Positions 13,743-25,610 of a stretch of DNA of 38,925 bases are shown piece after piece (position 1 is the first letter of the stretch; every line of letters starts with the position of its first letter). Location of the stretch: the NCBI GenBank assembly GCA_964361105.1, contig CAYHZG010000002.1, forward strand, positions 1-38,925, given 5' to 3'. The position numbers and the translations under genes are program-made. Origin of the DNA: an uncultured Candidatus Saccharibacteria bacterium (lineage in GTDB: Bacteria; Patescibacteriota; Minisyncoccia; 2-02-FULL-40-12). Under the pieces are notes generated by a model. It saw nothing but the letters and a program-made list of their open reading frames with translations. It was not told the DNA's origin and did no database searches.

Positions 13743-14939
13743 TTATCTTACTATTTTAACAAACTTCCGGGGACCAATCTGAATAATGTCCCCTTCTGAC
13801 GGCACAAAATTCCATTCTTTTTTTACTTCACCATTAACCTTAACGGCACCTTGATTAATTAACATCTTTGCGGAAGTGGAACTACTCTGCATTACTATTC
13901 CAACAAGTTCGATTAGTTTTCTTTTTTCCACTTCTTCCATTTCGTTTGGATATTCCCTCCTTGAAAAAATTCTATTCCATTCATCTGTTGCTTTTTCTGC
14001 TTCCATCTCCCCGTGGTAAATTTTTACTAACTCAAAAGCGAGTTCTTTCTTAAACTCATAAGGATCGGCTCTTTTCCTATCTTCTATCCATTGCATTGGT
14101 TTTTCTGTACAAAGTTTAAAGACTTTGGAAATCATCTCCCCATCCGGTATAGTTTTCATTACCTTACCGAACATATCCTTTGGTGAGTCGGATAACGATA
14201 TTAAACCACCTTCAGTTTTACTCATCTTTCTTCCTGACTCCTCTTCTACTAACAATTCGGTGGCAAAAACTAATTTATCTTTATTCAATAATTTTTTTTC
14301 TAAATCTCTCCCTATAAGCATATTGAATGTCTGATCATTCCCCCCAACTTCTCCATCAATATCCATAGCTACGGAGTCGTATCCTTGCAAAACCGGATAC
14401 AAGAATTCATGGACCCCAAGTGGATTGCCCTTTTCCTTTCTGTCTCGAAACATACTCCTGGCTTCTAACTGATAGACACTTAGGTTACCAGCAATATTCA
14501 TAAAATCCTTCAATGACATTTTGGCCAGCCAAGAGCTATTATGTTTAACCTCGAAAGATTTTTTAGGGAGAATCTTATGAACTTGATCGAAGTAATTATT
14601 CATATTGTCTTTTATTTCCTTGTCAGAAAGGGGCTTCCGAGTAGTATCCTTTCCTGTAGGATCTCCTATTGCTGCAGTAAAATCTCCAATAACCAGGACC
14701 GGGGTATGGCCTAACTTTAACTCCAATAATTGCTTAAGGAATAATAGCGGGATAGTGTGGCCAAGATGAAGACTTGGTCCGGTAGGATCTATACCCAAAT
14801 ATATTCTTAACCTTTCTTCTTTCAACCTTTTTTCGGCTTCCTCTCGAGATGGCCAAATATTCTCTCTGCCTTCAAAGTTTCCTATCCTTCGGGTTAGTAA
14901 TTCTTCCACTTTTAGATTATCGACTATGATTCTGGACAT
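13743..14939 (-). CDS. tyrS: Tyrosyl-tRNA synthetase
   Basis: 398 aa with class I motifs 'HLGH' and 'KMSKT', 'IGDFTAAIGDPTGK', and a C-terminal S4-like domain. Confidence 0.88.
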   Translation of the reverse strand: MSRIIVDNLKVEELLTRRIGNFEGRENIWPSREEAEKRLKEERLRIYLGIDPTGPSLHLGHTIPLLFLKQLLELKLGHTPVLVIGDFTAAIGDPTGKDTTRKPLSDKEIKDNMNNYFDQVHKILPKKSFEVKHNSSWLAKMSLKDFMNIAGNLSVYQLEARSMFRDRKEKGNPLGVHEFLYPVLQGYDSVAMDIDGEVGGNDQTFNMLIGRDLEKKLLNKDKLVFATELLVEEESGRKMSKTEGGLISLSDSPKDMFGKVMKTIPDGEMISKVFKLCTEKPMQWIEDRKRADPYEFKKELAFELVKIYHGEMEAEKATDEWNRIFSRREYPNEMEEVEKRKLIELVGIVMQSSSTSAKMLINQGAVKVNGEVKKEWNFVPSEGDIIQIGPRKFVKIVR

Positions 14940-15020
14940 TGCTTTTATAATAACTTTTTATTTGAATTTTGAGAATTTGGACAAAAATATCAATTTATGG
15001 CAGAATATCAAAACATGAAT

Positions 15021-15138
15021 CCCGTTAGAGACAAAATAAACGTCAATATAAAATAGTGGTGACAAAATCTCTTAACGGGATAAATCAATAACATAATTTG
15101 GCACGGTTGCGGCTTGGCCGCAACCTGTCTCTAACGGG
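15021..15138 (+). repeat. TIR element abutting the PBP1A start codon (divergent, composite copy)
   Basis: CCCGTTAGAGAC (15021-15032) and GTCTCTAACGGG (15127-15138) are 12/12 complementary. An internal half-site TCTCTTAACGGG lies at 15068-15079. A GC hairpin GGTTGCGGC-TTG-GCCGCAACC lies at 15105-15125. The element is flanked by ATGAAT on the left and ATGAAA on the right. Confidence 0.75.
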
Positions 15139-17232
15139 ATGAAAACAAAGAAAGGGGGCGACACTAATTCACTGACCAAGTTGCTGATTGTGTTTTTGAT
15201 TTGGCTAGTAGTTTTGGGGATAATAGGTTTCTTGGTTGCCTTTGCCTATCTGGCTCCCCAGATTCCTGACCCTCAAAGCATTATTACTAGACGCGTTAGT
15301 GAGTCAACTAAAATCTTTGACCGCGATGGCAAGATAACTTTGTTTAACGTTCATGGTGATGAAAAAAGAACCATTGTTCAGATGGAAGAAATTTCTGACT
15401 ACGTAAAGAGGGCGGTAATCACTGCTGAAGATGATAATTTTTACAGCCACCGGGGTTTAGATCTAAAAGGAGTAATCAGGGCGGTTTTTGTCAATATTAA
15501 AGCCAGGGATCCATTTTCCCAGGGCGGTTCAACCATAACCCAACAACTGGTCCGAAATTCACTACTCGGCGTTCAGAAAGCTTATTCTAGAAAATTAAAA
15601 GAAGTAATCCTGGCTCTCCAGGTTGAACAAAAATTTGATAAGGACCGGATTCTCTGGATGTATCTAAACCAAATTCCCTTTGGCTCGAATATTTTTGGAA
15701 TTGAAGAGGCGGCTAAAGATTACTTCGGAAAACCAGCCAGAGAACTTATCCTAAACGAATCGGCAGTTTTAGCTGCTTTAATTAAGGCGCCGAGTTACTA
15801 CTCGCCTTATGGTTCTCATAAGGATGAACTGCTGAAAAGAAAAGATTTGATTTTGGAAAGAATGTTTAAACTTGAGTTGATAAGCGAAGGAGAATTTAAT
15901 CAAGCAAAAAATGAAGAGCTAAAACTTGCTTCTCCGACTAATGGCGGAATCCTGGCCCCTCATTTTGTAATGATGGTTCGGGAATACTTGGTTGAAAAAT
16001 ACGGCGAGGACTTGGTTCAAAATGGTGGACTAAAAGTTTATACGACTTTGGACTGGGAAATGCAACAAAAGGCCGAAGAGATTGTCCAAAAGTATGCCGA
16101 TAGAAACGAGGAACTGTTTAAAGCCGGGAATGCGGCCTTAGTGGCTCTTGGCCCCAAAAGCGGAGATATATTGGCCCTGGTCGGCTCAAGAAACTATTTT
16201 GATATTGAAAAAGAAGGAAACTTTAACGTCATCACTGCTTTTAGGCAACCGGGTTCGGCTTTCAAGCCAATAGTTTATTCGGTTGCTTTAGATAACGGTT
16301 TAACTGACAAAACAATCTTATTTGACGCGAAAACAGAATTCAATCCCTACTGTTCTCCTGATGGGACCCAAGAAAAAGATCAATTTGATCTTGAATGTTA
16401 TCACCCCCAAAACTCTGATGAAAAATTCAGGGGAGCAGTGACCCTAAGGCAGGCCCTGGGCAGCTCTTTAAACATACCTTCAGTCAAAATCCTTTACCTG
16501 GCTGGAATCAAAGAATCGCTTAAAAGGGCAGGCGATCTGGGAATAAAATTCTTAGGAGACACTAAAGATTTTGGATTGTCCCTGGTTTTGGGCGGCGGCG
16601 ACGTTCGGCCTCTTGATTTAGTGGCGGCCTATGGTGTTCTCGCCAACGATGGCATCTATAATGAGTCGGTTTTTATTCTTAAAGTCGAGGACTCGGAAGG
16701 AAAAATAATTGAGGAGTTTAGTCCTGACCCCCAAAGAAGGGTGGCCGAACAAACAGCCAGAATGATCAATGATATTTTATCGGATAATTCAGCCAGAGCC
16801 CTGCTTTTTGGATTAAATAGTACTCTATATATTTCGTCTCATCAGGTGGCGGTAAAGACCGGAACAACTCAAAAGTTCCGCGATGCTTGGACCATTGGCT
16901 ACACCCCGTCCTTAGCCGTCGGGGTCTGGGTAGGCAATAATGACAATGCTGAAATGACCCGCGAAGGAGGCGGCATTTCGGCTGGAGCGCCGATCTGGAG
17001 AGAATTTATAACGGAGGTGCTAAAAAACCAACCAGATGAAGAGTTTCCAAAACCAGAACCAGTCTTTATCGATAAAATAATGCTGAATGGAAATTACACT
17101 GGCGAAGACGGGCAGCTCCACACTATTTTACACTATATAGACAAAAACGACCCTCGGGGCTCGGTCCCATCTAATCCTGAATCTGACCCGCAATACAATC
17201 ACTGGGAGTGGTCAGTAAAAAATGGTTTTTAA
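15139..17232 (+). CDS. Bifunctional class A penicillin-binding protein (glycosyltransferase/transpeptidase, PBP1A type)
   Basis: 697 aa with GT51 motifs 'EDDNFYSHRGLD', 'GGSTITQQL' and 'RKLKE', and transpeptidase motifs 'SAFKP', 'SLN' and 'KTGTT'. Confidence 0.92.
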   Translation: MKTKKGGDTNSLTKLLIVFLIWLVVLGIIGFLVAFAYLAPQIPDPQSIITRRVSESTKIFDRDGKITLFNVHGDEKRTIVQMEEISDYVKRAVITAEDDNFYSHRGLDLKGVIRAVFVNIKARDPFSQGGSTITQQLVRNSLLGVQKAYSRKLKEVILALQVEQKFDKDRILWMYLNQIPFGSNIFGIEEAAKDYFGKPARELILNESAVLAALIKAPSYYSPYGSHKDELLKRKDLILERMFKLELISEGEFNQAKNEELKLASPTNGGILAPHFVMMVREYLVEKYGEDLVQNGGLKVYTTLDWEMQQKAEEIVQKYADRNEELFKAGNAALVALGPKSGDILALVGSRNYFDIEKEGNFNVITAFRQPGSAFKPIVYSVALDNGLTDKTILFDAKTEFNPYCSPDGTQEKDQFDLECYHPQNSDEKFRGAVTLRQALGSSLNIPSVKILYLAGIKESLKRAGDLGIKFLGDTKDFGLSLVLGGGDVRPLDLVAAYGVLANDGIYNESVFILKVEDSEGKIIEEFSPDPQRRVAEQTARMINDILSDNSARALLFGLNSTLYISSHQVAVKTGTTQKFRDAWTIGYTPSLAVGVWVGNNDNAEMTREGGGISAGAPIWREFITEVLKNQPDEEFPKPEPVFIDKIMLNGNYTGEDGQLHTILHYIDKNDPRGSVPSNPESDPQYNHWEWSVKNGF

Positions 17233-17234
17233 AA

Positions 17235-18293
17235 CTAAGAACTGGTAGCTCTGTATTTTGGCGTAACTATTTTATCCATCAATTTAAAAAGTGGGTAAAA
17301 TTTTGAAACCGGAAAATCAAAAGCCCCGAGATAGTTGAATCTTTTGCCATCAAAAGCTCTTTTAAAAAGAGTAAAGCCATGCCAAGGATGGTTTTTATCG
17401 TCTTCGGGTCCAAGCCCCCAAAAGTCAAATGTTTTGACGCCGACTCTCTTTAAGTCCTTTAATATCCCCCAAATATAACCGTAATTGAAAAATTTACTAT
17501 ATTGTTTATGCCTTCCGGTTCCACCCCAGATATAAAAAGCCCTGTCTCCCAAAACAAGGACTATGCCGTAAGCTAAAATAAGGCCTTTGACTTTAGCAAT
17601 ATAAAACCTGACTGCTCCCAATCTGGTCATCTCGTTAAGCAAAAAAATAAACTGTTTGAATGGTCTTAAAGGAAAAGAAAATCTTTTACCGGTTATTCGG
17701 TAAAGGTTATAAAAGCCTTTTAAATCATCTTGGGTGACCTCATCGCTTTTTAAAGTTTCAACTGTTATTAATTCTCTTTCTGAACGATAAATTAAGTTCC
17801 TGGCTGTTCTTCTGAATTTTTTAAGTAGTTCTTCTTCAGAAGGCGTCAAATCAATTAAGAGAGTGGAAGACGGTTGAACGGTCTTAAAATATTCTTTAAA
17901 GTCGCTTTCTTTTAAAACCCTAACCAACTCCTCATTTTCTTCAACTGGCGGCTCCAAACGCAAAAAAAGAGTTTTAGGGTCTTTTAATTTTTCTATAAAA
18001 AAAACTTTAAGGGCGCTGATTACTTCTTTGACTAATTCCGGGTTTCCCCAGTCGGTTACTGGGCCTCTTGGAATATAGAACAGAGAAAATCCAAGAGGCA
18101 GCCTTCTTTTTAGCAATTGGGCTACCCCCTTTAATTCTCCTTCTTTTAAAAAACCAATTCTCTGGCTTTCCCAGTTGAATTTAGATTTAATCTCTCCCCA
18201 TTCCCAAGATTGAAGAATGTCTTTATATTTTGAACTGAGCAGGAAATCATTGTATTTTTTTCTGTCGTTTTCATTAAAAATAATTAAATCCAT
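17235..18293 (-). CDS. FemAB-family peptidoglycan interpeptide-bridge aminoacyltransferase
   Basis: 'ILQSWEWGEIKSKFNWESQRIGF' and 'LFYIPRGPV' are typical of the FemX/FemAB family. Start set at the second ATGGAT (18293), because the 24 upstream codons are the repeat element. Confidence 0.85.
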   Translation of the reverse strand: MDLIIFNENDRKKYNDFLLSSKYKDILQSWEWGEIKSKFNWESQRIGFLKEGELKGVAQLLKRRLPLGFSLFYIPRGPVTDWGNPELVKEVISALKVFFIEKLKDPKTLFLRLEPPVEENEELVRVLKESDFKEYFKTVQPSSTLLIDLTPSEEELLKKFRRTARNLIYRSERELITVETLKSDEVTQDDLKGFYNLYRITGKRFSFPLRPFKQFIFLLNEMTRLGAVRFYIAKVKGLILAYGIVLVLGDRAFYIWGGTGRHKQYSKFFNYGYIWGILKDLKRVGVKTFDFWGLGPEDDKNHPWHGFTLFKRAFDGKRFNYLGAFDFPVSKFYPLFKLMDKIVTPKYRATSS

Positions 18294-18359
18294 CCCATTA
18301 GAAATCCGACTCGCCTTTGGCGAGTCGGCAAAAATCTCTGATTTTTTATTTCTAACGGG
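18294..18359 (-). repeat. 66-nt TIR element between the dnaN stop and the FemAB start
   Basis: 65/66 identical to 23349-23414 in the opposite orientation. Arms are CCCGTTAGAAAT and ATTTCTAATGGG. Internal hairpin CCGACTCGCC-AAAG-GCGAGTCGG at 18306-18328. ATGGAT flanks both sides. Confidence 0.9.
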
Positions 18360-18364
18360 ATCCA

Positions 18365-19465
18365 TTATGTTTTTAGGGGCATAATCAAATAAGTAAAATT
18401 TAGGTCTTGATCTTTTGGTCTTAAAGTTATTGGCGCCCCTTCGCCAGCGTATTCAAAAACAATATCTTCAGAAGAGATATTCTTTAGGCCGTCTACCAGA
18501 TAATTATAGTTTAGCAAAACTTCAAATGGTTCATTAATTTGAATATTGGGATTATTTTTGACTCTCGAGTTAAACTCGCCTCGGTCAGAATTTTTAGAAA
18601 ACACGACCGCCTCTTTTTTGTCAATCCTCAAACCGATGTCGTTTATATTGCTTGAAAACAGTCCGGCTAATCTTATGTTATTTTGAAGGTCTTCTTTTTT
18701 GAATAAAACCTGGGAAACTGATTTTGTGGGGATAACTTTTTGATAATCTGGATACCGGCCCTCAACCAAACGGGAAATAATTTCAAAATCATCTGAAGAA
18801 AACTGAATCTGATTTTCCTCTATGCTGATTAAAGTATCTTTTTCATAGTCAGAAAAGATTCTTATTAGCTCGGCCACAGTATTTCTTGGAATTATTACCG
18901 AGATTTGTTTGTTGCAATTTATGTCGATTATTTTTTCAGTCAGACGGAAACTATCAGTAGAAGCAAGATAAATTTTCGTTTTATTAAAACTAATAAAAAC
19001 ACCACCGAGTTCTGGTCTGGTTTGGGAAACAGAAATTGAATCAAATACAGAAGCCAAGGCGTTTTTTAAAACCCGACTCGGTAAGGTGACCACCGGATCC
19101 TTTTTTAATTTAGGAATTAGTGGGAAATCTTTAGGGTCGAGGCAAATAAATTTTGTCTTAAAATTAATACTTTGAATATTTAAAATATTATCCTTTAAAA
19201 GGAGCTCTATTTTGTCATCTTTGATATTAGAAACAAAATCGGAAAATATTTTTGCCGGTATGGCTACCTTACCTTCATTCTCGGTGGTAGCTTTAAGATA
19301 GTAATTTATTCCCAATTCTAAATTAGTAGTTGAAAGATTGACTTGATTATTTTTAAAAGTCATTAAAATAGCATTTAAAACCGGCAGGTTTAGATTTTTA
19401 CCGACAATATTTTTAACCGTGTTTAAACCTTGCTGAAGATTTCTAGTTATTATTGTAATTTTCAT
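18365..19465 (-). CDS. dnaN: DNA polymerase III beta sliding clamp
   Basis: 366 aa with a three-domain beta-clamp pattern, directly downstream of dnaA. Confidence 0.9.
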   Translation of the reverse strand: MKITIITRNLQQGLNTVKNIVGKNLNLPVLNAILMTFKNNQVNLSTTNLELGINYYLKATTENEGKVAIPAKIFSDFVSNIKDDKIELLLKDNILNIQSINFKTKFICLDPKDFPLIPKLKKDPVVTLPSRVLKNALASVFDSISVSQTRPELGGVFISFNKTKIYLASTDSFRLTEKIIDINCNKQISVIIPRNTVAELIRIFSDYEKDTLISIEENQIQFSSDDFEIISRLVEGRYPDYQKVIPTKSVSQVLFKKEDLQNNIRLAGLFSSNINDIGLRIDKKEAVVFSKNSDRGEFNSRVKNNPNIQINEPFEVLLNYNYLVDGLKNISSEDIVFEYAGEGAPITLRPKDQDLNFTYLIMPLKT

Positions 19466-19680
19466 AATATAAATTTAATAAAGATAATAATAAGCTTTGT
19501 GGAAAAGTAATTAAATCAAATGTTTATCCATATAATACCTAAATAAATCTATTTTAATTACTAATTGATAAACTATTGATAATTTTGTTATAAGGTCTTA
19601 AGTTTTAAACTTATTTTAAAACTTTCAAGTTTAAATCTTCAAAATAACAAACTCAAATCAACATATCTATCTACAACTTG
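19466..19680. promoter_or_regulatory. AT-rich dnaA-dnaN intergenic region with DnaA-box-like 9-mers
   Basis: TGTGGAAAA (19498-19506) and TTATCCATA (19524-19532) are each one mismatch from TGTGGATAA/TTATCCACA. The spacer is extremely AT-rich. Confidence 0.5.
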
Positions 19681-21051
19681 TCAGGCCTTATTATAAATCC
19701 TTTCCCTGATTAAATTTATTTCTTGTTTCATATTTTCATTATTTTCCACTTCTTCAACAATTTTCCGATAGGCATGAATCACTGTTGAGTGATCTTTTCC
19801 TCCCAAACGACTACCAATATCCGGAAAAGATGCCTTAGTATCTTCCCTTAAAAGATACATTGCAATCTGGCGTGGCTTGACTAAAAATGTTTTCCTGCTC
19901 TTTTTAAGAAGTTCATTTAAAGTAAGGCCATAAAAATCGCAAACAACTTTTACTATTGCCTGGGCGTTTGTTTTTCGGTAACTGGCCTGGACATAGGCCT
20001 TTAAGAGTTTTTCTACTTCTTTTGGAGTTGGCTCTCGGCCGGTCAAGTCGCTTACCGCAATAATTCTATTTAAAGCACCTTCAAGCTCTCTTATATTTTT
20101 CTGAATATTAGTAGCGATGCATTCTAAGACTTCGTCTGGCAAAGAGATCGGCTTATTCTTTACCTTTGTTTTCAGAATAGCCAGACGAGTTTCATAATCA
20201 GGAATATTAATGTCAGCGATCATTCCTCCTTCAAATCTCGATTTTAACCTTTCTTCAATGGCCGACAAGGCCTTTGGCGGCCGGTCGGAAGATAGAATAA
20301 TCTGTTTATTCCGGTTATATAAATTATTAAAAGTGGCGAAAAATATGTTTTGAGTAGTTTCCTTGGCCGCCAAAAACTGAATATCATCAACGATTAAGAC
20401 GTCTCTTTGGGCATATTTTGTTTTAACTTCTTCTATGGTTTTGTTCTTTATTCCTTCAATGAGTTCAGAAACCATTTTTTCAGCCGGCAAGTAGATGATT
20501 TTCTTATCGGGATTATCCTTTAATATTTTATTGGCAATGCCTTGAAGTAAATGAGTTTTACCTAAACCCACTCCTCCATAAATAAAAAGAGGGTTATAAA
20601 TCTTGCCCAAGCTTTTAACTACAGCCATACTGGCCGCATAGGCCAGTTCATTACTTGGGCCAACAACAAAACCATCAAGAGTGTACTTTCTGTTCAGGTT
20701 TGTTTTGGGGTCAATGTCGGTGTCTGAGTTTATTTCTTGGATTTGTTCAAGCTGTATCTCCCTGGTTAGAATCTTTGAGTCCGATGTTTTTACAAAAGGG
20801 TTACCAACAACGTAATTAATTTCTCTAATATCGTTATCGGCCTGCTTTAAGCATTGAAAAATCACTTTATTAAATTTATTTTGGATCCATTCTTTAACAA
20901 AGCCATTAGGAACACTGATTACAACCTGTCCATTTTCTTTGGAAATAATTTTAGTGTCTTTAAACCAGGTAACAAAGCTGGCTTTGCTCAAAGACATCTC
21001 CATTTCACCCAAAACACCTTTCCAAATATCTTCATTAGTTAGAGTGGTCAT
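19681..21051 (-). CDS. dnaA: Chromosomal replication initiator DnaA
   Basis: 456 aa with Walker A 'GGVGLGKTHLL', 'LIVDDIQFL' and a C-terminal DNA-binding domain ('GGKDHSTVIHAYRKI'). Confidence 0.95.
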   Translation of the reverse strand: MTTLTNEDIWKGVLGEMEMSLSKASFVTWFKDTKIISKENGQVVISVPNGFVKEWIQNKFNKVIFQCLKQADNDIREINYVVGNPFVKTSDSKILTREIQLEQIQEINSDTDIDPKTNLNRKYTLDGFVVGPSNELAYAASMAVVKSLGKIYNPLFIYGGVGLGKTHLLQGIANKILKDNPDKKIIYLPAEKMVSELIEGIKNKTIEEVKTKYAQRDVLIVDDIQFLAAKETTQNIFFATFNNLYNRNKQIILSSDRPPKALSAIEERLKSRFEGGMIADINIPDYETRLAILKTKVKNKPISLPDEVLECIATNIQKNIRELEGALNRIIAVSDLTGREPTPKEVEKLLKAYVQASYRKTNAQAIVKVVCDFYGLTLNELLKKSRKTFLVKPRQIAMYLLREDTKASFPDIGSRLGGKDHSTVIHAYRKIVEEVENNENMKQEINLIRERIYNKA

Positions 21052-21204
21052 GTTTTTTCTTAATTCTATTTTATAGATACGTCGATTAACAATTTATTTA
21101 AGTTGAGAATTTGTTGATAATAAGTTGATTAGCATAATTATTATATTCTCGATTGTCAAACCTAACAATTGACCAGTTTTAAGAAAAAGGTTAATTTAAA
21201 AAGC
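21052..21204. promoter_or_regulatory. Candidate oriC / divergent promoter region between dnaA and rpmH
   Basis: AT-rich spacer between divergently oriented dnaA and rpmH. TGTTGATAA (21112-21120) is one mismatch from a DnaA box. Gene orientation switches here. Confidence 0.5.
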
Positions 21205-21351
21205 ATGACCAGAGCAAAAGCATTAACCTTTCATCCATCAAAAAAGAAAAAAGCAAGAAAGCACGGGTTTAGAAAAAGAATCGAGACCCAGGCTGGAAAA
21301 AAAGTTTTACTGAGAAGAAGAAGAAAGGGCAGAAAAAGAATAATCCCCTAG
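21205..21351 (+). CDS. rpmH: 50S ribosomal protein L34
   Basis: '[39 protein letters not shown]'. ATG 21205 gives the usual length of about 48 aa; the track start TTG 21169 is probably too long. Confidence 0.9.
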
Positions 21352-21358
21352 GTTAAAG

Positions 21359-21694
21359 ATGTCTTTACCAAGAAAATATTGTTTGTCCAGCAAATCTGAG
21401 ATTGAAGGAGTTTTTAAAAAGGGAAAGTATCTGAACTCTGAGTTGTTTTCCATAAAATTTTCCCCAAATAGTACTAATTTCAGCAGATTGGCAGTAATCG
21501 TCGGCAAAAAGAGCTCAAAGAAATCGGTTTTAAGGAATAGAATCAAAAGATTGGTGAGTGAAATTATACGGTTGAATTACTCAAGGATTAAACCCGGTTA
21601 TAATATCGTTTTAATAGTTAAATCTCGGGCCATAAATGAGGAATACAGAGATTTAAAAGAAGCTTTAGTTAAAAGATTGAGTGAAATTGGCTAA
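21359..21694 (+). CDS. rnpA: Ribonuclease P protein component
   Basis: 111-aa basic protein in the conserved position after rpmH, containing 'NRIKRLVSEIIR'. Confidence 0.88.
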   Translation: MSLPRKYCLSSKSEIEGVFKKGKYLNSELFSIKFSPNSTNFSRLAVIVGKKSSKKSVLRNRIKRLVSEIIRLNYSRIKPGYNIVLIVKSRAINEEYRDLKEALVKRLSEIG

Positions 21695-21921
21695 TGAAAA
21701 CGTTAACTATTGGTCTGATAAAACTATATCAAAGTACTTTTTCGCCTAATCACGGCCTTGAATTTTTTGGTTTTTTGACCGGTTGCCGGTTTTACCCTTC
21801 CTGTTCCGAGTATTCAATTCAGGCGATAAATAAGCACGGCCTGATAAGGGGCCTTTTTAAATCAATCGTAAGGATTTTAAAGTGCAATCCATGGTCAAGA
21901 GGCGGAGTTGATTTACCATGA
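21694..21921 (+). CDS. yidD: Membrane protein insertion efficiency factor YidD
   Basis: 75 aa with 'CRFYPSCSEYSIQAINKHG' and 'LKCNPWSRGGVD'. TGA stop at 21919-21921. Confidence 0.92.
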   Translation: MKTLTIGLIKLYQSTFSPNHGLEFFGFLTGCRFYPSCSEYSIQAINKHGLIRGLFKSIVRILKCNPWSRGGVDLP

Positions 21922-22063
21922 CCCAGTAGTAGAAATTCGGCAGGTTTTTAGCCATGTCGTTGTAATCTACTGGGAGCAGATTAATAATAATTTTTGTTAA
22001 TTTTTGGCAATATCTAGTTTTATAAAACCAAACTAAGACATATGCCGAATTTTCACTACTGGG
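21922..22063 (-). mobile_element. 142-bp ORF-less (MITE-like) derivative of the GIY-YIG cassette, inserted in the yidD/yidC ATGA junction
   Basis: TIRs CCCAGTAGTAGAAATTCGGCA (21922-21942) and TGCCGAATTTTCACTACTGGG (22043-22063) are 19/21 complementary. They have the same two end variants (GTAGTAGAAATTCG and GTAGTGAAAATTCG) as 1440-1753, but inverted. Direct ATGA at 21918-21921 and 22064-22067. Confidence 0.75.
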
Positions 22064-22858
22064 ATGACTGGATTATTTAACTCAATTTTATACATTCCGT
22101 TTTTCAATCTTCTTGTTTTTTTGTATAACACCGTTGCTTTTCACGATTTTGGCTTGGCCATAATCTTACTGACTCTGGTTATTAGGTTAGTTCTTAGCCC
22201 CTTGTCTATTAAGACATTTAAATCACAAAAGATTTTAAGCGAGCTTCAACCAAAGATTAAAGAAATTCAAGAGAAATTCAAAAATGATCCTCAAAAACAA
22301 ACCCAGCAGATTATGGAAACATATAAACAGTACAAGGCCAACCCGTTTTCGGGATGCCTGCCCTTATTAATTCAACTCCCGATTTTAATAGCTCTTTACC
22401 AGGTCTCACTCGCTGGTTTTGAAAAAAATTCACTCTCGGCTTTATACAGCTTTGTTAAGAATCCCGAGTTTTTAAATCAGACATCTTTAGGGTTTATTGA
22501 TTTGACTAAAAGAAGTGTTTTTCTTTCGGTATTTGCCGGCGTTAGTCAATTTTTACAAACTAAGCTAAGCCTCAATTTCCAGAAGAATCCCGCCCTTCAA
22601 AAATCTCCCAAAACGACAGCGATTCCGCAACGAGCCGTAAGCGGCTCGGCGGAACCTTCGACGAGCAATCCCATCGCTTCAATGAACCAACAAATGTTGT
22701 ATTTTTTGCCCATTATCACTATAATTATTTCGATGAGTTTTCCAGCTGGTCTGCCGCTTTATTGGATAGCCACAACTTTGTTTTCGGTTCTAGAACAGGT
22801 ATACATTAATAAGACATATGCAAAACCAAATCGAAAACCTGATTTCTCAAACCGTTAA
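22064..22858 (+). CDS. yidC: Membrane protein insertase YidC (short, Gram-positive-like form)
   Basis: 264 aa with 'GCLPLLIQLPILIALY' and 'PAGLPLYWIATTLFSVLEQ'. Confidence 0.92.
   Translation: MTGLFNSILYIPFFNLLVFLYNTVAFHDFGLAIILLTLVIRLVLSPLSIKTFKSQKILSELQPKIKEIQEKFKNDPQKQTQQIMETYKQYKANPFSGCLPLLIQLPILIALYQVSLAGFEKNSLSALYSFVKNPEFLNQTSLGFIDLTKRSVFLSVFAGVSQFLQTKLSLNFQKNPALQKSPKTTAIPQRAVSGSAEPSTSNPIASMNQQMLYFLPIITIIISMSFPAGLPLYWIATTLFSVLEQVYINKTYAKPNRKPDFSNR
22623..22654. repeat. GC-rich hairpin inside the yidC coding sequence
   Basis: TTCCGC-aa-CGAGCCG-TAAG-CGGCTCG-GCGGAA forms a 13-bp interrupted stem. It encodes part of the hydrophilic stretch 'IPQRAVSGSAEPS'. Confidence 0.7.
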
Positions 22859-23291
22859 AGACCTTTTTCAAAGAGCCGGTTTTAATTTCAATGATTTGAA
22901 TATAGAAAAAAATGGGGATGGGCAAGAAGAGGCATTTATAGTCAAAATCCAGTCGGACGATGATTGTTCTCTGTTACTGAGTGACAAAGGCAGGAGTTTG
23001 AGAGCTTTTGAGTATATTGCTAGAATTCTGGCTGTAAAAGAGTCAAACCAGAAAATCAGTTTGATTATTGATCTAAATAATTTTTTAGAGAAGAGAAACA
23101 GCCGAATCTCCGAATTAGCCAGACTAGTAGCTAAAAAGGTCCAAACTACCCAAAAGTCATTTGCTTTAAGGCCAATGTCAGCCTATGAAAGGCGTTTAGT
23201 TCATCTCGAACTGGCTACTTGGCCAGACATTAGAACTGAAAGCATTGGCGAAGAACCAAAACGACGAGTAGTAATAAAACCAGGTCAATAA
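22818..23291 (+). CDS. Jag/KhpB-type RNA-binding protein (KH + R3H)
   Basis: 157 aa in the conserved position after yidC, with R3H motif 'SAYERRLVHLELA'. Confidence 0.85.
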   Translation: MQNQIENLISQTVKDLFQRAGFNFNDLNIEKNGDGQEEAFIVKIQSDDDCSLLLSDKGRSLRAFEYIARILAVKESNQKISLIIDLNNFLEKRNSRISELARLVAKKVQTTQKSFALRPMSAYERRLVHLELATWPDIRTESIGEEPKRRVVIKPGQ

Positions 23292-23348
23292 TCAGATATT
23301 AGGTTATCAGTACTTAGGGTAAAAGGAAAACCCTATTTTTTTATGGAT

Positions 23349-23414
23349 CCCGTTAGAAATAAAAAATCAGAGATTTTTGCCGACTCGCCAGAGGCGAGTC
23401 GGATTTCTAATGGG
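23349..23414 (+). repeat. 66-nt TIR element abutting the flippase start codon
   Basis: Arms CCCGTTAGAAAT (23349-23360) and ATTTCTAATGGG (23403-23414). Hairpin CCGACTCGCC-AGAG-GCGAGTCGG at 23380-23402. Flanked by ATGGAT at 23343-23348 and 23415-23420. Confidence 0.9.
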
Positions 23415-24833
23415 ATGGATTTGCATAGAATCTACAAAAACTTTTTCATTGCCTCTGTTTCTCGATTGTTTACGGCCGTGGTGGGCTTGATTATCATTGG
23501 ATTTTTAACCAGGCATCTCGGGCAAATAGGGTATGGCATTTATGAGACCATCCTTTCCTACCTTTTCATTTTCACAATTTTGGCTGATTTTGGTCTCCAC
23601 ATAGTTCATGTCCGAGAAATTTCTCGCCATCCCGAAAAAGAAGAGTTTATTTCCGGAAATATTTTTACCCTTAGATTTATTTCCCTAATTTTAGTAATAA
23701 TTTTAGCGGTTATTGTCGGTTCATTTTTGCCCTATTCAGCAGAAACTAAGACCGGGATCTTGATTGCCACGATTTTTGTCCTTTTTTCATCCTTAAGTCA
23801 AATTTTATCCGGTATTTTTCAAAAGTATCACACTTTTTACTTGGTTTCTTTCTCGGATATATTGACTCGACTGATTCAGTTGGGTCTGGTTTTTTATGCA
23901 ATAAAGGCAGGTTTTGGTCTTTTGGCTTTTGTTTGGATACTTTCCATAACTAGCGGTCTTCAATTTGCAATAGTTTTCTTTTTATCGCGTCGTTTCATTA
24001 AGTTTCCTTTTACTTTTGATTTTTCTTACGCCAGAGAGGTCCTAAAAGTCTCTTTGCCGGTGGCCGCCTCAATCCTATTTACGGCAATTTATATCAGAAC
24101 CGATGCCTTAATGCTTTCTTTAATGAAACCAGCTTCTGATGTTGGAATTTACCGTTTGGCGGCCAAGCTACTGGAAACGATTGTGTTTTTCCCGGCCCTC
24201 CTCGTAGAACTGACCATGCCCTCATTTTCCAGTTTTGCCTTTGAGGCGAGACACGTTTTTAAAATTATTTTCATAAAGATATTTAATATTTTATTTATTT
24301 TGGCAGTACCAGTAGTTGTTTTTCTGACTGTTTTGTCCCATTCGATTGTCTTAATCCTTGGTGGGCAGGAGTTTTTAAGTTCGGCCCTGCCCTTAAAGAT
24401 CCTGGCATTCGTGGTTGGCCTGGTCTTTTTAAATAACCTCGGAGGCAGGGCCTTGATTGCTTTGGAACTTCAAAGGACTGGGATGTGGATTTATATTTCT
24501 GGCGCAGTTTTAAATATTGTGGCTAACTTATTGGTTATTCCCAAATACTCTTATATTGGCGCTTCTTTTACCACTTTAATAACCGAAATTGTGGTCACGA
24601 TTATGATGTTTTTGATTATTTATCAAAAGACCGGTTTTACTGCTGAAATGAAAAGGATCTATAAGCCCATTTTGGCCGGCTTAATCATGGCCTTAGTTAT
24701 TTATAAATTTAAAGAATTTAATATTTTAGTTCCCTTTTTCTTGGGACTAGCGGTCTACTCCTTAGTCCTTTATTTTATTGGCGGTTTCACCAAAAAGAAT
24801 ATAGAAGAAATTCTAAATTTTAAGGGAGTATAA
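23415..24833 (+). CDS. Oligosaccharide/lipid-linked precursor flippase (MOP superfamily, Wzx/MurJ-like)
   Basis: About 472-aa polytopic protein with roughly 12-14 hydrophobic segments and the typical N-terminal 'SRLFTAVVGLIIIGFLTRHLG'. Start set at the second ATGGAT. Confidence 0.8.
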   Translation: MDLHRIYKNFFIASVSRLFTAVVGLIIIGFLTRHLGQIGYGIYETILSYLFIFTILADFGLHIVHVREISRHPEKEEFISGNIFTLRFISLILVIILAVIVGSFLPYSAETKTGILIATIFVLFSSLSQILSGIFQKYHTFYLVSFSDILTRLIQLGLVFYAIKAGFGLLAFVWILSITSGLQFAIVFFLSRRFIKFPFTFDFSYAREVLKVSLPVAASILFTAIYIRTDALMLSLMKPASDVGIYRLAAKLLETIVFFPALLVELTMPSFSSFAFEARHVFKIIFIKIFNILFILAVPVVVFLTVLSHSIVLILGGQEFLSSALPLKILAFVVGLVFLNNLGGRALIALELQRTGMWIYISGAVLNIVANLLVIPKYSYIGASFTTLITEIVVTIMMFLIIYQKTGFTAEMKRIYKPILAGLIMALVIYKFKEFNILVPFFLGLAVYSLVLYFIGGFTKKNIEEILNFKGV

Positions 24834-25610
24834 CTTTTTGTCTTTGGTATTCACGAATATTAAATAATCCTTCAGGGGACTTAGTTTTAGGTTAGTCGTT
24901 TCAAGTCCTAGATTTTTCAGAATGCTCGTTTCCCCAGAATCTTTTTCAGGTATTTTTTGAAATTCTTTTCCGTCGGGAGTTATTGAAAATGCCGCCGAGG
25001 GGTCTCTTATCGGGTATAAAATGATTAGATTTGTTTCTGACCAGGCGAGTTTTAGGTCTTTAATCCGTGTCTTAAAAATGGTTATTGGATCAATCCCGAT
25101 GGGATTGGCTGTTAAAATATTTACCCAGTCACTTTCTTTATCGTAGGTATAGTAAACAACTCTCTGGCCATCAGCCGAGAAAACAATATTCTCCGCATTT
25201 TTCGGCAGTTCCACCCGCCTATTTTCTCTCAGATTAAAATAAAAATTTTTTAAAATACCCTTTTCTGATACGGCCGCTATAAGTTCTTCTCCGTTGGGGC
25301 TAAAGCTCATTTTTAAAACATTGCTAATTCGGGCCAGTTCTCTTTTGTTTTTTGCGTCAAAACCAACCTCATAAATTATTGAATCAGTTTCTTCGTAATA
25401 GAGGACTCTATCAGAACCATCTTTTAAGTTAAGAAAGTCAACCGGTCCCCTACTTATTTTTACTGGTAAATTTTTTAAAGCATCTGATTTGATATTAAGT
25501 TTAGACCGTTGGTCTTTTTCCAGTTTTTGGAAATTTAAGACCAAAAGCGAAACCATGACCCCGCTTAAAACAAAAATCAGAATAATCAGGTTTTTTCTAA
25601 TGTCAGTCAT
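24813..25610 (-). CDS. Membrane-anchored protein with TolB-like (PD40) beta-propeller repeats
   Basis: N-terminal TM segment 'LIILIFVLSGVMVSLLVL', then repeated 'FSPNGEELIA', 'FSADGQRVVYY' and 'ITPDGKEF' motifs. Last gene of the T4SS-like array. Confidence 0.6.
   Translation of the reverse strand: MTDIRKNLIILIFVLSGVMVSLLVLNFQKLEKDQRSKLNIKSDALKNLPVKISRGPVDFLNLKDGSDRVLYYEETDSIIYEVGFDAKNKRELARISNVLKMSFSPNGEELIAAVSEKGILKNFYFNLRENRRVELPKNAENIVFSADGQRVVYYTYDKESDWVNILTANPIGIDPITIFKTRIKDLKLAWSETNLIILYPIRDPSAAFSITPDGKEFQKIPEKDSGETSILKNLGLETTNLKLSPLKDYLIFVNTKDKKLYSLKI

Follow-up and report, generated by a model that had tools for sequence, protein, structure and literature searches.

In a 38,925-nt stretch of DNA from an uncultured, ultra-small Candidatus Saccharibacteria bacterium of groundwater (contig CAYHZG010000002.1; the whole stretch is called "the window" here), a 66-nt inverted-repeat element lies between dnaN, the gene for the beta clamp of DNA polymerase III, and a gene for a FemAB-family peptidoglycan bridge transferase. 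The junction is very probably the product of a mobile-element insertion into a one-base TAATG stop/start overlap, with a target duplication and an element that is a member of a dispersed family. The insertion is recent, and the element is a non-autonomous one with inverted-repeat ends. On the minus strand, the end of dnaN (...ACA TAATGGAT) is followed by the element (18294–18359) and then by ATGGAT TTA of FemAB, i.e., the letters run ...CCCCTAAAAACA TAATGGAT CCCGTTAGAAATAAAAAATCAGAGATTTTTGCCGACTCGCCAAAGGCGAGTCGGATTTCTAATGGG ATGGAT TTAATT..., where CCCGTTAGAAATAAAAAATCAGAGATTTTTGCCGACTCGCCAAAGGCGAGTCGGATTTCTAATGGG is the element, and in a wider view the flanks are ...TTGATTATGCCCCTAAAAACA before TAATGGAT and ATGGAT TTAATTATT... 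after the element. The insertion added 72 nt, leaving ATGGAT on each side, the TAA of dnaN in place and an ATG at both ends of the element. The ATGs at 18365 and 18293 thus lie 72 nt or 24 codons apart, in frame and with no stop between them; these first 24 codons (MDPVRNKKSEIFADSPKASRISNG) consist of the upstream ATGGAT plus the 66-nt element, and the next codons, ATGGAT TTA, read MDL. A preliminary description of this locus had given the same coordinates, the same spacing and the same frame, all of which proved exact when compared with the sequence and the list of open reading frames (ORFs).

The arms of the element are 12 nt each (CCCGTTAGAAAT and ATTTCTAATGGG, with one G-T pair) and enclose a central GC hairpin of 10 bp, a pattern expected 0.00 times in shuffled sequences. 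The RNA of the element region folds at −39.3 kcal/mol, as compared with −16.4 ± 3.1 for shuffles (z = −7.4). The only frame through the element is that of the host gene, and it carries no gene of its own; a search of Rfam 15 over positions 14000–25000 of the window (E ≤ 1) gave no match at the element. Both neighbors are recognizable, the dnaN product by three DNA_pol3_beta domains and the FemAB product by a Pfam FemAB match of 4.7e-35, in which the domain starts only at residue 35 of the 376-residue ORF. The FemAB gene is intact and constrained, with a ratio of nonsynonymous to synonymous divergence (dN/dS) of 0.07 and a synonymous divergence (dS) of 0.78 relative to a homologue that is 91% identical.

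The evidence that carries the insertion comes from relatives in which the site is empty. The three closest orthologous loci found by protein search (L031, L032 and L033) encode FemAB proteins that are 91%, 78% and 72% identical to that of the window and all 352 residues long, and in each of them the end coordinate of dnaN is the start coordinate of FemAB, giving a 1-nt overlap with the element absent. These junctions read ...CC(C/T)CT(G/A)AAAACATAATGGATT(C/T)A... (individually ...ATGCCCCTGAAAACATAATGGATTCAACT..., ...ATGCCCCTGAAAACATAATGGATTCAATT... and ...ATGCCTCTAAAAACATAATGGATTTAATC...), which is the window minus the element and one ATGGAT, and this shows that the TAATG overlap was ancestral in the near clade and that the 72 nt are an insertion. 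The preliminary description had predicted precisely this overlap upon removal of the element and one ATGGAT, and had set the comparison with relatives beforehand as the refuting test; the three junctions bear it out. An N-terminal extension is found in none of 43 FemAB homologues, which range from 319 to 383 residues, most of them 348–356. In six further members of the same taxonomic family (FemAB 65–70% identical), dnaN is again followed by FemAB, with spacers of 15, 3, 35, 33, 31 and 24 nt and an in-frame overlap in none of the six, so that the one-base overlap is limited to the near clade. An alternative ancestral junction with a 3-nt spacer (TAATGGATGGAT), as found in one genome (G005), would imply a GGAT duplication; it was rejected on two grounds, namely the TAATGGATT of the three nearest relatives and the T-run upstream of a second copy of the element. 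An exact scan of metagenome contigs with a 23-mer made of the dnaN end plus ATGGAT returned 0 matches.

This second 66-nt copy lies on the start codon of a gene for a Wzx/MurJ-like flippase, bordered by ATGGAT at 23343–23348 and 23415–23420, and an 80-nt stretch that comprises both ATGGAT copies, the element and TT is repeated there (23343–23422) with 99% identity. The 24-residue peptides encoded by the two copies are alike except for one residue. The flippase site is empty in L034 and L085, which read TTTTTTTATGGATTTGCA, and with the sites of the relatives empty it follows that both 66-nt copies struck ATGGATTT. As the two copies differ at one base and dS relative to the 91% identical homologue is 0.78, the insertions are far younger than that split. 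A 118-nt member of the family sits on the start codon of the penicillin-binding protein gene PBP1A; read from the upstream ATG, this member is out of frame and holds stops, and its site is likewise empty in L034 and L031 (AAAACATGAAAA).

The flank of the element was then resolved to the base by comparing six bases per side in 54 copies, half of them (27) from this genome and half from the loci of relatives. In all 54, the bases that adjoin the element on its two sides complement each other (T...A in 32, C...G in 21, A...T in one). Of the 31 copies that are identical in the central four flank bases (positions 2–5), only 21 also agree at position 1 and only 12 at position 6. These statistics lead to an inverted repeat that is one base longer at each end (Y...R) and a true duplication of 4 bp, the duplications being TGAA (13), TCAA (4), TGGA (3), TTGA (3), TGAG (3), TGTA (2) and others, loosely TNNA. 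With its covarying terminal T...A pair the dnaN/FemAB element is then 68 nt long (18293–18360), and the A at 18293, the first base of the downstream start codon, is probably supplied by the element itself. Two independent observations agree with such a terminal base: at PBP1A the empty site is ATGAAA and the filled left copy ATGAAT, and PBP2 on contig C9 has a GTG start behind an element with C...G ends, whereas the gene begins with ATG in each of six relatives from the same taxonomic family. It seems that C...G-ended elements convert ATG starts to GTG. One point weighs against this model: at the dnaN/FemAB copy a 6-bp duplication (ATGGAT) and a 4-bp duplication (TGGA) predict the same letters, and the 4-bp claim therefore rests on the family. 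Taken over the family, a 4-bp duplication with an element-borne terminal base is nonetheless the likely arrangement. The terminal purine together with the duplicated TG would rebuild the downstream start codon, as ATG or GTG, and the A of the host together with the left copy would preserve the upstream stop/start overlap. Three C...G-ended elements were noted in this genome (C9:5426–5534, C45:291–402 and C3:33664–33777), after which PBP2, an MltG-like gene and MreB, respectively, start with GTG; their left flanks keep ATG or TTG. The MreB start was tried as a test of the terminal base and dropped in favor of PBP2, since the N-termini of its relatives could not be aligned.

The element belongs to a family that apparently is large and undescribed. 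The genome (G000; 524 kb in 59 contigs, 40.6% GC, 88% complete, ~87% coding) contains 27 elements bounded by CCCGTTAGA...TCTAACGGG, with lengths of 28–168 nt, two of them nested. Across 105 genomes of the order, from 49 genera, short elements with ends of this type were found in 48 genomes and 24 genera, and the control, the pattern reversed, had 0 matches. Another genus even has a copy of the 66-nt subfamily, differing by three substitutions (G007:C10:14470–14535), which lies on a start codon as ATGAAT / element / ATGAAA, in the same orientation and open in frame. A full-text search of the literature, whose coverage is incomplete, found no description of MITEs (miniature inverted-repeat transposable elements) or palindromic elements like these in Patescibacteria/CPR (the candidate phyla radiation) and none of elements that target start codons.

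Among the 25 non-nested copies of this genome, 13 lie directly 5′ of the start (ATG or GTG) of an ORF with 68 or more residues. The left flank of six of these 13 contains a stop codon (TGA or TAA), which in five cases closes a gene of at least 120 residues, in four ATGA overlaps and one TAATG, that of dnaN/FemAB. The preliminary description had proposed a preference for gene junctions that contain ATG, and the counts agree with it: 11 of 12 copies with a TGRR duplication are on a start codon, compared with 1.4% of all such sites (P 7e-20), and they remain in excess when only starts and intergenic sites are considered (background 10.9%, P about 3e-10). For copies with RTGR flanks the figures are 13 of 15 versus 2.7% (P 4e-19), and a background of 19% (P 3e-8) for starts and intergenic sites. 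A reservation is due here, as the gene starts in these null models are crude longest-ORF calls, but the effect is nevertheless large. The preference seems to be due to more than selection against insertions within genes alone; target preference and survival would probably be combined, with the start codon being, in a genome that is ~87% coding, the one place where an insertion would spare both genes.

The gene overlap at yidD/yidC, for which the preliminary description had noted the same geometry, holds a 142-nt element from a related but distinct inverted-repeat family. The likeness holds in that an element sits in a gene overlap with an ATG on each side, and it fails in that the family is another one, the overlap is a 4-nt ATGA and the two starts are out of frame. 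The TGA of yidD (21919–21921) overlaps the ATG at 21918, and the yidC start ATGAC follows the element at 22064, so that the filled site reads ACC ATGAC / 142-nt element / ATGAC TGG, with 146 nt from start to start. In the closest relative (L085) the ATGA overlap is intact (CTACCATGACTAG). A more distant relative with a 79% identical YidC (L086, a contig of ENA ERZ27284378) carries two further, different inverted-repeat elements between positions 960 and 1500, one (ends CCAGTAATACAACTTCCAA) on the yidC ATGAC that is also occupied in the window and one (ends CCCCCACACCAAACAAGGAT) at the rnpA/yidD junction. Since these differ from the element in the window, junctions of the yidC region have been struck repeatedly and independently.

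Could the 66-nt sequence not be mobile at all, and instead be a conserved cis-regulatory leader or coding tag of cell-envelope genes? All three copies in the window precede genes of the cell wall or envelope (FemAB, the flippase and PBP1A), and the near identity of the two 24-residue peptides would fit such a tag. Yet the orthologous sites at all three genes are empty in relatives, the two copies are 99% identical in the face of a dS of 0.78 for the flanking genes relative to the nearest relative, and other copies of the family precede unrelated genes or lie within genes, which together make this explanation very improbable. An assembly artefact, in which a repeat was misjoined into a contig of a metagenome-assembled genome, must be considered with a draft of 59 contigs, as assemblers can be misled by short repeats. 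It is just as hard to credit, since both flanks of each copy are collinear to the base with the loci of relatives, the insert is shorter than a read, and the 5 kb that separate the two inverted copies have the same gene order as in L034. The two 66-nt copies are in fact mutually inverted (18286–18365 and 23343–23422) and bracket the dnaN-dnaA-rpmH-rnpA-yidD-yidC-jag origin region, where they could act as substrates for inversion; an inversion that has already taken place between them was rejected, the gene order being equal to that of L034.

Accepting the insertion, the question becomes what it does to FemAB. The preliminary description had the insertion splitting the overlap, uncoupling the two genes or extending the protein; the insertion did go into the TAATG site, but the overlap was not destroyed by it, as a copy persists upstream, and hence the choice is between reading through from there and starting at the downstream ATG. 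The frame between the two ATGs is open in the sense orientation only, the reverse having a TGA. The predicted fold of the transcript has a 14-bp outer stem and two inner hairpins; in it, the first two bases of the downstream AUG pair with the last two of the upstream GGAU, at the base of the −39 kcal/mol hairpin. There is almost no Shine–Dalgarno signal in this genome, GGAGG being found upstream of 2.5% of long ORFs (n = 407) against a background of 0.5%, and 50 four-base (ATGA) and 14 one-base junctions occur genome-wide; initiation seems to rely on A/U-rich leaders and coupling. Under such conditions the choice of a start would hang on unstructured RNA and on coupling, and the upstream ATG retains its full native 5′ context along with the TAATG overlap. 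A ribosome halting at the TAA of dnaN would already open the first part of the stem, so that restart and read-through would be the simplest path. As far as can be judged from the letters, read-through from the retained ATG, giving a 376-residue FemAB with the 24-residue extension MDPVRNKKSEIFADSPKASRISNG, is therefore slightly favored. The two outcomes would differ in their N-terminal peptides (MDPVRNKKSEIFADSPK for read-through, MDLIIFNENDR for the downstream start).

What speaks against read-through is that translation from the upstream ATG would meet a stop within the element, 6–37 codons on, in 11 of this genome's 13 start-codon copies. The downstream starts of those genes must then function, i.e., the right end of the element permits initiation, which weakens the case for read-through at FemAB. 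The same 11 copies favor a reading in which the downstream ATG (18291–18293) is the working start and the element a 72-nt spacer, untranslated or incidentally translated, with the coupling to dnaN either lost or kept by ribosomes at the TAA that melt the 5′ arm and expose the AUG. The stem juxtaposes the two ATGGAT copies, and the lack of an extension in all 43 homologues points the same way. On the other side, this AUG is partly paired at the foot of the hairpin with no Shine–Dalgarno sequence, and ribosomes initiating at the upstream ATG, with its native context and open frame, would read through anyway (peptide MDPVRNKK...), so that the downstream start is the less probable of the two, albeit a serious contender. 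That the main effect is transcriptional, with the GC hairpin and AUUUCUAAUG forming a partial intrinsic terminator that lowers the FemAB/dnaN and flippase/jag mRNA ratios, is unlikely. A single terminator-like match (18328–18306 on the minus strand, 10 pairs, 8 of them GC) and the shared orientation of both 66-nt copies and the G007 copy relative to the gene speak for it; but the U tract is short and broken up, which makes for a weak tail (ATTTCTAATG), 0.8 such matches are expected by chance in a 900-nt region, the asymmetric way in which the target is used accounts for the fixed orientation, and strong polarity would be costly for FemAB and the flippase, cell-wall genes that are strongly constrained (dN/dS 0.07). 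Some termination of transcription may occur between dnaN and FemAB. Ribosome hopping between the identical ATGGAT sites, for which gene 60 of T4 is reportedly a precedent, was set aside as remote, because the open frame makes it unneeded and there is no stop at the take-off site.

The 66-nt element would need an enzyme from elsewhere to move, and candidates for such a partner are elements of 273–293 bp (~278 bp) with identical ends, found in 15 of the 105 genomes of the order (control, 0 matches). Most of ten such loci that were sampled contain one small ORF (MTCYYVYILQS...YTGFT...) of ~86 residues, a single-domain GIY-YIG protein, with a match to Pfam PF01541 (GIY-YIG) of 2.9e-16 and the UPF0213 proteins 1zg2 and 1ywl as the nearest solved structures. 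Eight of nine cassettes lie directly 5′ of a host ATG with flanks of the ATGAAT/ATGAAA type, and in four the stop of the upstream gene is in the left flank. The ~278-bp cassettes with the same ends would supply mobilization in trans, a proposal that rests on this association and for which the balance is about even, as two points count against it. No GIY-YIG cassette with CCCGTTAGA ends is present in this 88%-complete assembly, and GIY-YIG enzymes are, to our knowledge, not established transposases. The genome has four GIY-YIG matches, three small cassettes with other ends and one 488-residue ORF that is probably UvrC. The small cassettes are located at C2:1440–1753 (in the window), C1:~24413–24697 and C21:~2320–2575, with their own ends CCAGGTAGTGAAAATTCGAC, CCCGCACATAAATTGGAC and CCGAGCACATAATT, respectively; the ends of the 1440–1753 cassette resemble those of the 142-nt yidD/yidC element. 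More tentatively still, elements with CCCGTTAGA ends and their ~278-bp parents might form a class of minimal transposons whose sole protein is the ~86-residue GIY-YIG nuclease, which would home to start codons with ends that regenerate stop and start (a 4-bp TGAA-type duplication plus a terminal purine) and a hairpin that keeps translational coupling. Should this be true, the dnaN/FemAB copy would be a clean natural "scarless" insertion into a one-base gene overlap, and transposition by a GIY-YIG enzyme would be categorically new.

By structure the element is a MITE, i.e., it is short and gene-free, has terminal inverted repeats and a duplication evident from filled and empty sites, and occurs in many dispersed copies. 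Described bacterial MITEs (Correia/CREE of Neisseria, MITEAba12 [PMC6382973] and small repeats [PMC3184786]) also fold into stable hairpins once transcribed, and their insertion beside genes can likewise alter expression. Unlike these, the element has ends and a sequence of its own, a duplication of 4 bp with the consensus TGAA instead of TA or 9 bp, and more than half of its copies exactly on start codons with a terminal purine that rebuilds the codon; moreover, wherever a partner with a gene was found, that gene encodes a GIY-YIG nuclease and not a DDE transposase. It is also not a Correia element (CREE), which has a TA duplication and a 26-bp Correia inverted repeat where the present element has TGGA/TGAA and CCCGTTAGA ends.

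Palindromic selfish repeats that survive in compact genomes, with host proteins gaining residues, are known from Rickettsia as the Rickettsia palindromic elements (RPEs). Like them, the dnaN/FemAB element is a palindromic, in-frame and stop-free insert, with a predicted addition of 24 N-terminal residues, whereas RPEs lie inside coding regions, have no defined duplication, no start-codon preference and no known partner gene, and are unrelated in sequence. Small hairpin-forming repeats with an oriented, sequence-specific insertion at a short target are also known among the IS200/IS605-derived PATEs and REP/RAYT. PATEs and REP make no target duplication, are without terminal inverted repeats and need a Y1 HUH transposase; the comparison of empty and filled sites and the inverted-repeat ends set the present element apart from both. 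The Ssn GIY-YIG single-strand nucleases offer a parallel for the cassettes, being encoded by small genes flanked by their own hairpin repeats (NTS/SRM), and an IS-like architecture has been noted for them (Chenal et al. 2025, PMC11893778). As in Ssn/SRM, a single-domain GIY-YIG gene stands between inverted hairpin repeats that also occur solo; the comparison is by architecture and by the PF01541 and UPF0213 structure matches only. The role proposed for Ssn is the modulation of transformation, and Patescibacteria, start codons and MITEs are not mentioned (PMC11893778).

What is seen at this locus is a wider phenomenon, of which it is one well-documented case. Ultra-small Patescibacteria have genomes that are ~87% coding with many stop/start overlaps, and how selfish DNA persists in them is poorly understood. 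Here a mobile element can be followed base by base into a gene overlap in which neither gene was broken, because the duplication and, probably, the terminal base of the element rebuild the signals. The case bears on the choice of start codons in organisms without Shine–Dalgarno sequences, on whether translational coupling survives a 72-nt hairpin, and on whether small GIY-YIG (Ssn-like) nucleases are transposases, which PMC11893778 put forward as a hypothesis and left untested. Annotation is affected as well, since gene callers will pick the upstream ATG and so add 24-residue extensions, spurious or real, and ATG starts can silently become GTG. The positions of the features discussed are collected in Table 1.

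Table 1. Positions in the window of the genes, the element and its parts, and related elements
Feature	Position	Strand	Basis or remark
dnaN (DNA polymerase III beta clamp), 366 residues	18365..19465	−	ORF list, translation, Pfam; stop TAA 18365–18367
Upstream ATGGAT	18360..18365	−	Retained ATG 18363–18365 overlaps dnaN TAA by one base (TAATG)
Left target-duplication copy, TGGA	18361–18364	−	Empty sites ACATAATGGATT in L031, L032 and L033; flank statistics
T, probable terminal base of the element	18360	−	Flank statistics
66-nt core of the mobile inverted-repeat element	18294..18359	−	Arms 18348–18359 and 18294–18305; site empty in three relatives
Central GC hairpin GCCGACTCGCC-AAA-GGCGAGTCGG, then ATTTCTAATG	18306..18329	−	Pattern search, folds; resembles a terminator on the sense strand
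Downstream ATGGAT, native FemAB N-terminus (MDL...)	18288..18293	−	Closest homologues align from residue 1 of the downstream ATG
Right target-duplication copy, TGGA	18289–18292	−	Flank statistics
FemAB-family peptidoglycan bridge transferase, native frame of 352 residues	17235..18293	−	Translation, Pfam; open frame reaches 18365
ORF including the element, 376 residues	17235..18365	−	ATG shares its A with the last A of dnaN TAA
Second 66-nt copy, 65/66 identical	23349..23414	+	On the start codon of the Wzx/MurJ-like flippase gene; same orientation to the gene, in frame
118-nt family member	15021..15138	+	On the start codon of PBP1A, flanked by ATGAAT (left) and ATGAAA (right)
142-nt element of a related but distinct inverted-repeat family (CCCAGTAGTAGAAATTCGGCA)	21922..22063	+	Within the yidD/yidC ATGA overlap

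Some further observations concern the family at large. A family member was noted at L035:1690–1755, on a JGI contig (Ga0209515) of 54% GC, with the central hairpin GCCGACTCGCC...GGCGAGTCGG, ends CCCGTTAGAAGT and flanks of GCGCAC and GCAAGA, thus with no ATG there. This contig is much richer in GC, and the family accordingly extends beyond low-GC Paceibacteria. The central hairpin alone was tried as a marker of the family and rejected as not diagnostic, since only this one of 14 metagenome matches was true and all nine genome matches were by chance, in high-GC genomes such as Streptomyces. The 45-, 48- and 69-nt subfamilies lie mostly within long open frames, in frame. The 45/48-nt copies at C14:4260–4307, C21:5669–5716, C3:35781–35828, C6:17471–17515 and C19:245–292 of this genome are inside such frames, which reach 704 residues, and are stop-free in both orientations, like Rickettsia palindromic elements. 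Two nearly identical 168-nt composites (C3:17660–17827 and C5:9966–10133), each consisting of a 48-nt element nested in one of ~120 nt, both sit at ATGA stop/start overlaps, from which it follows that the composite itself has moved.

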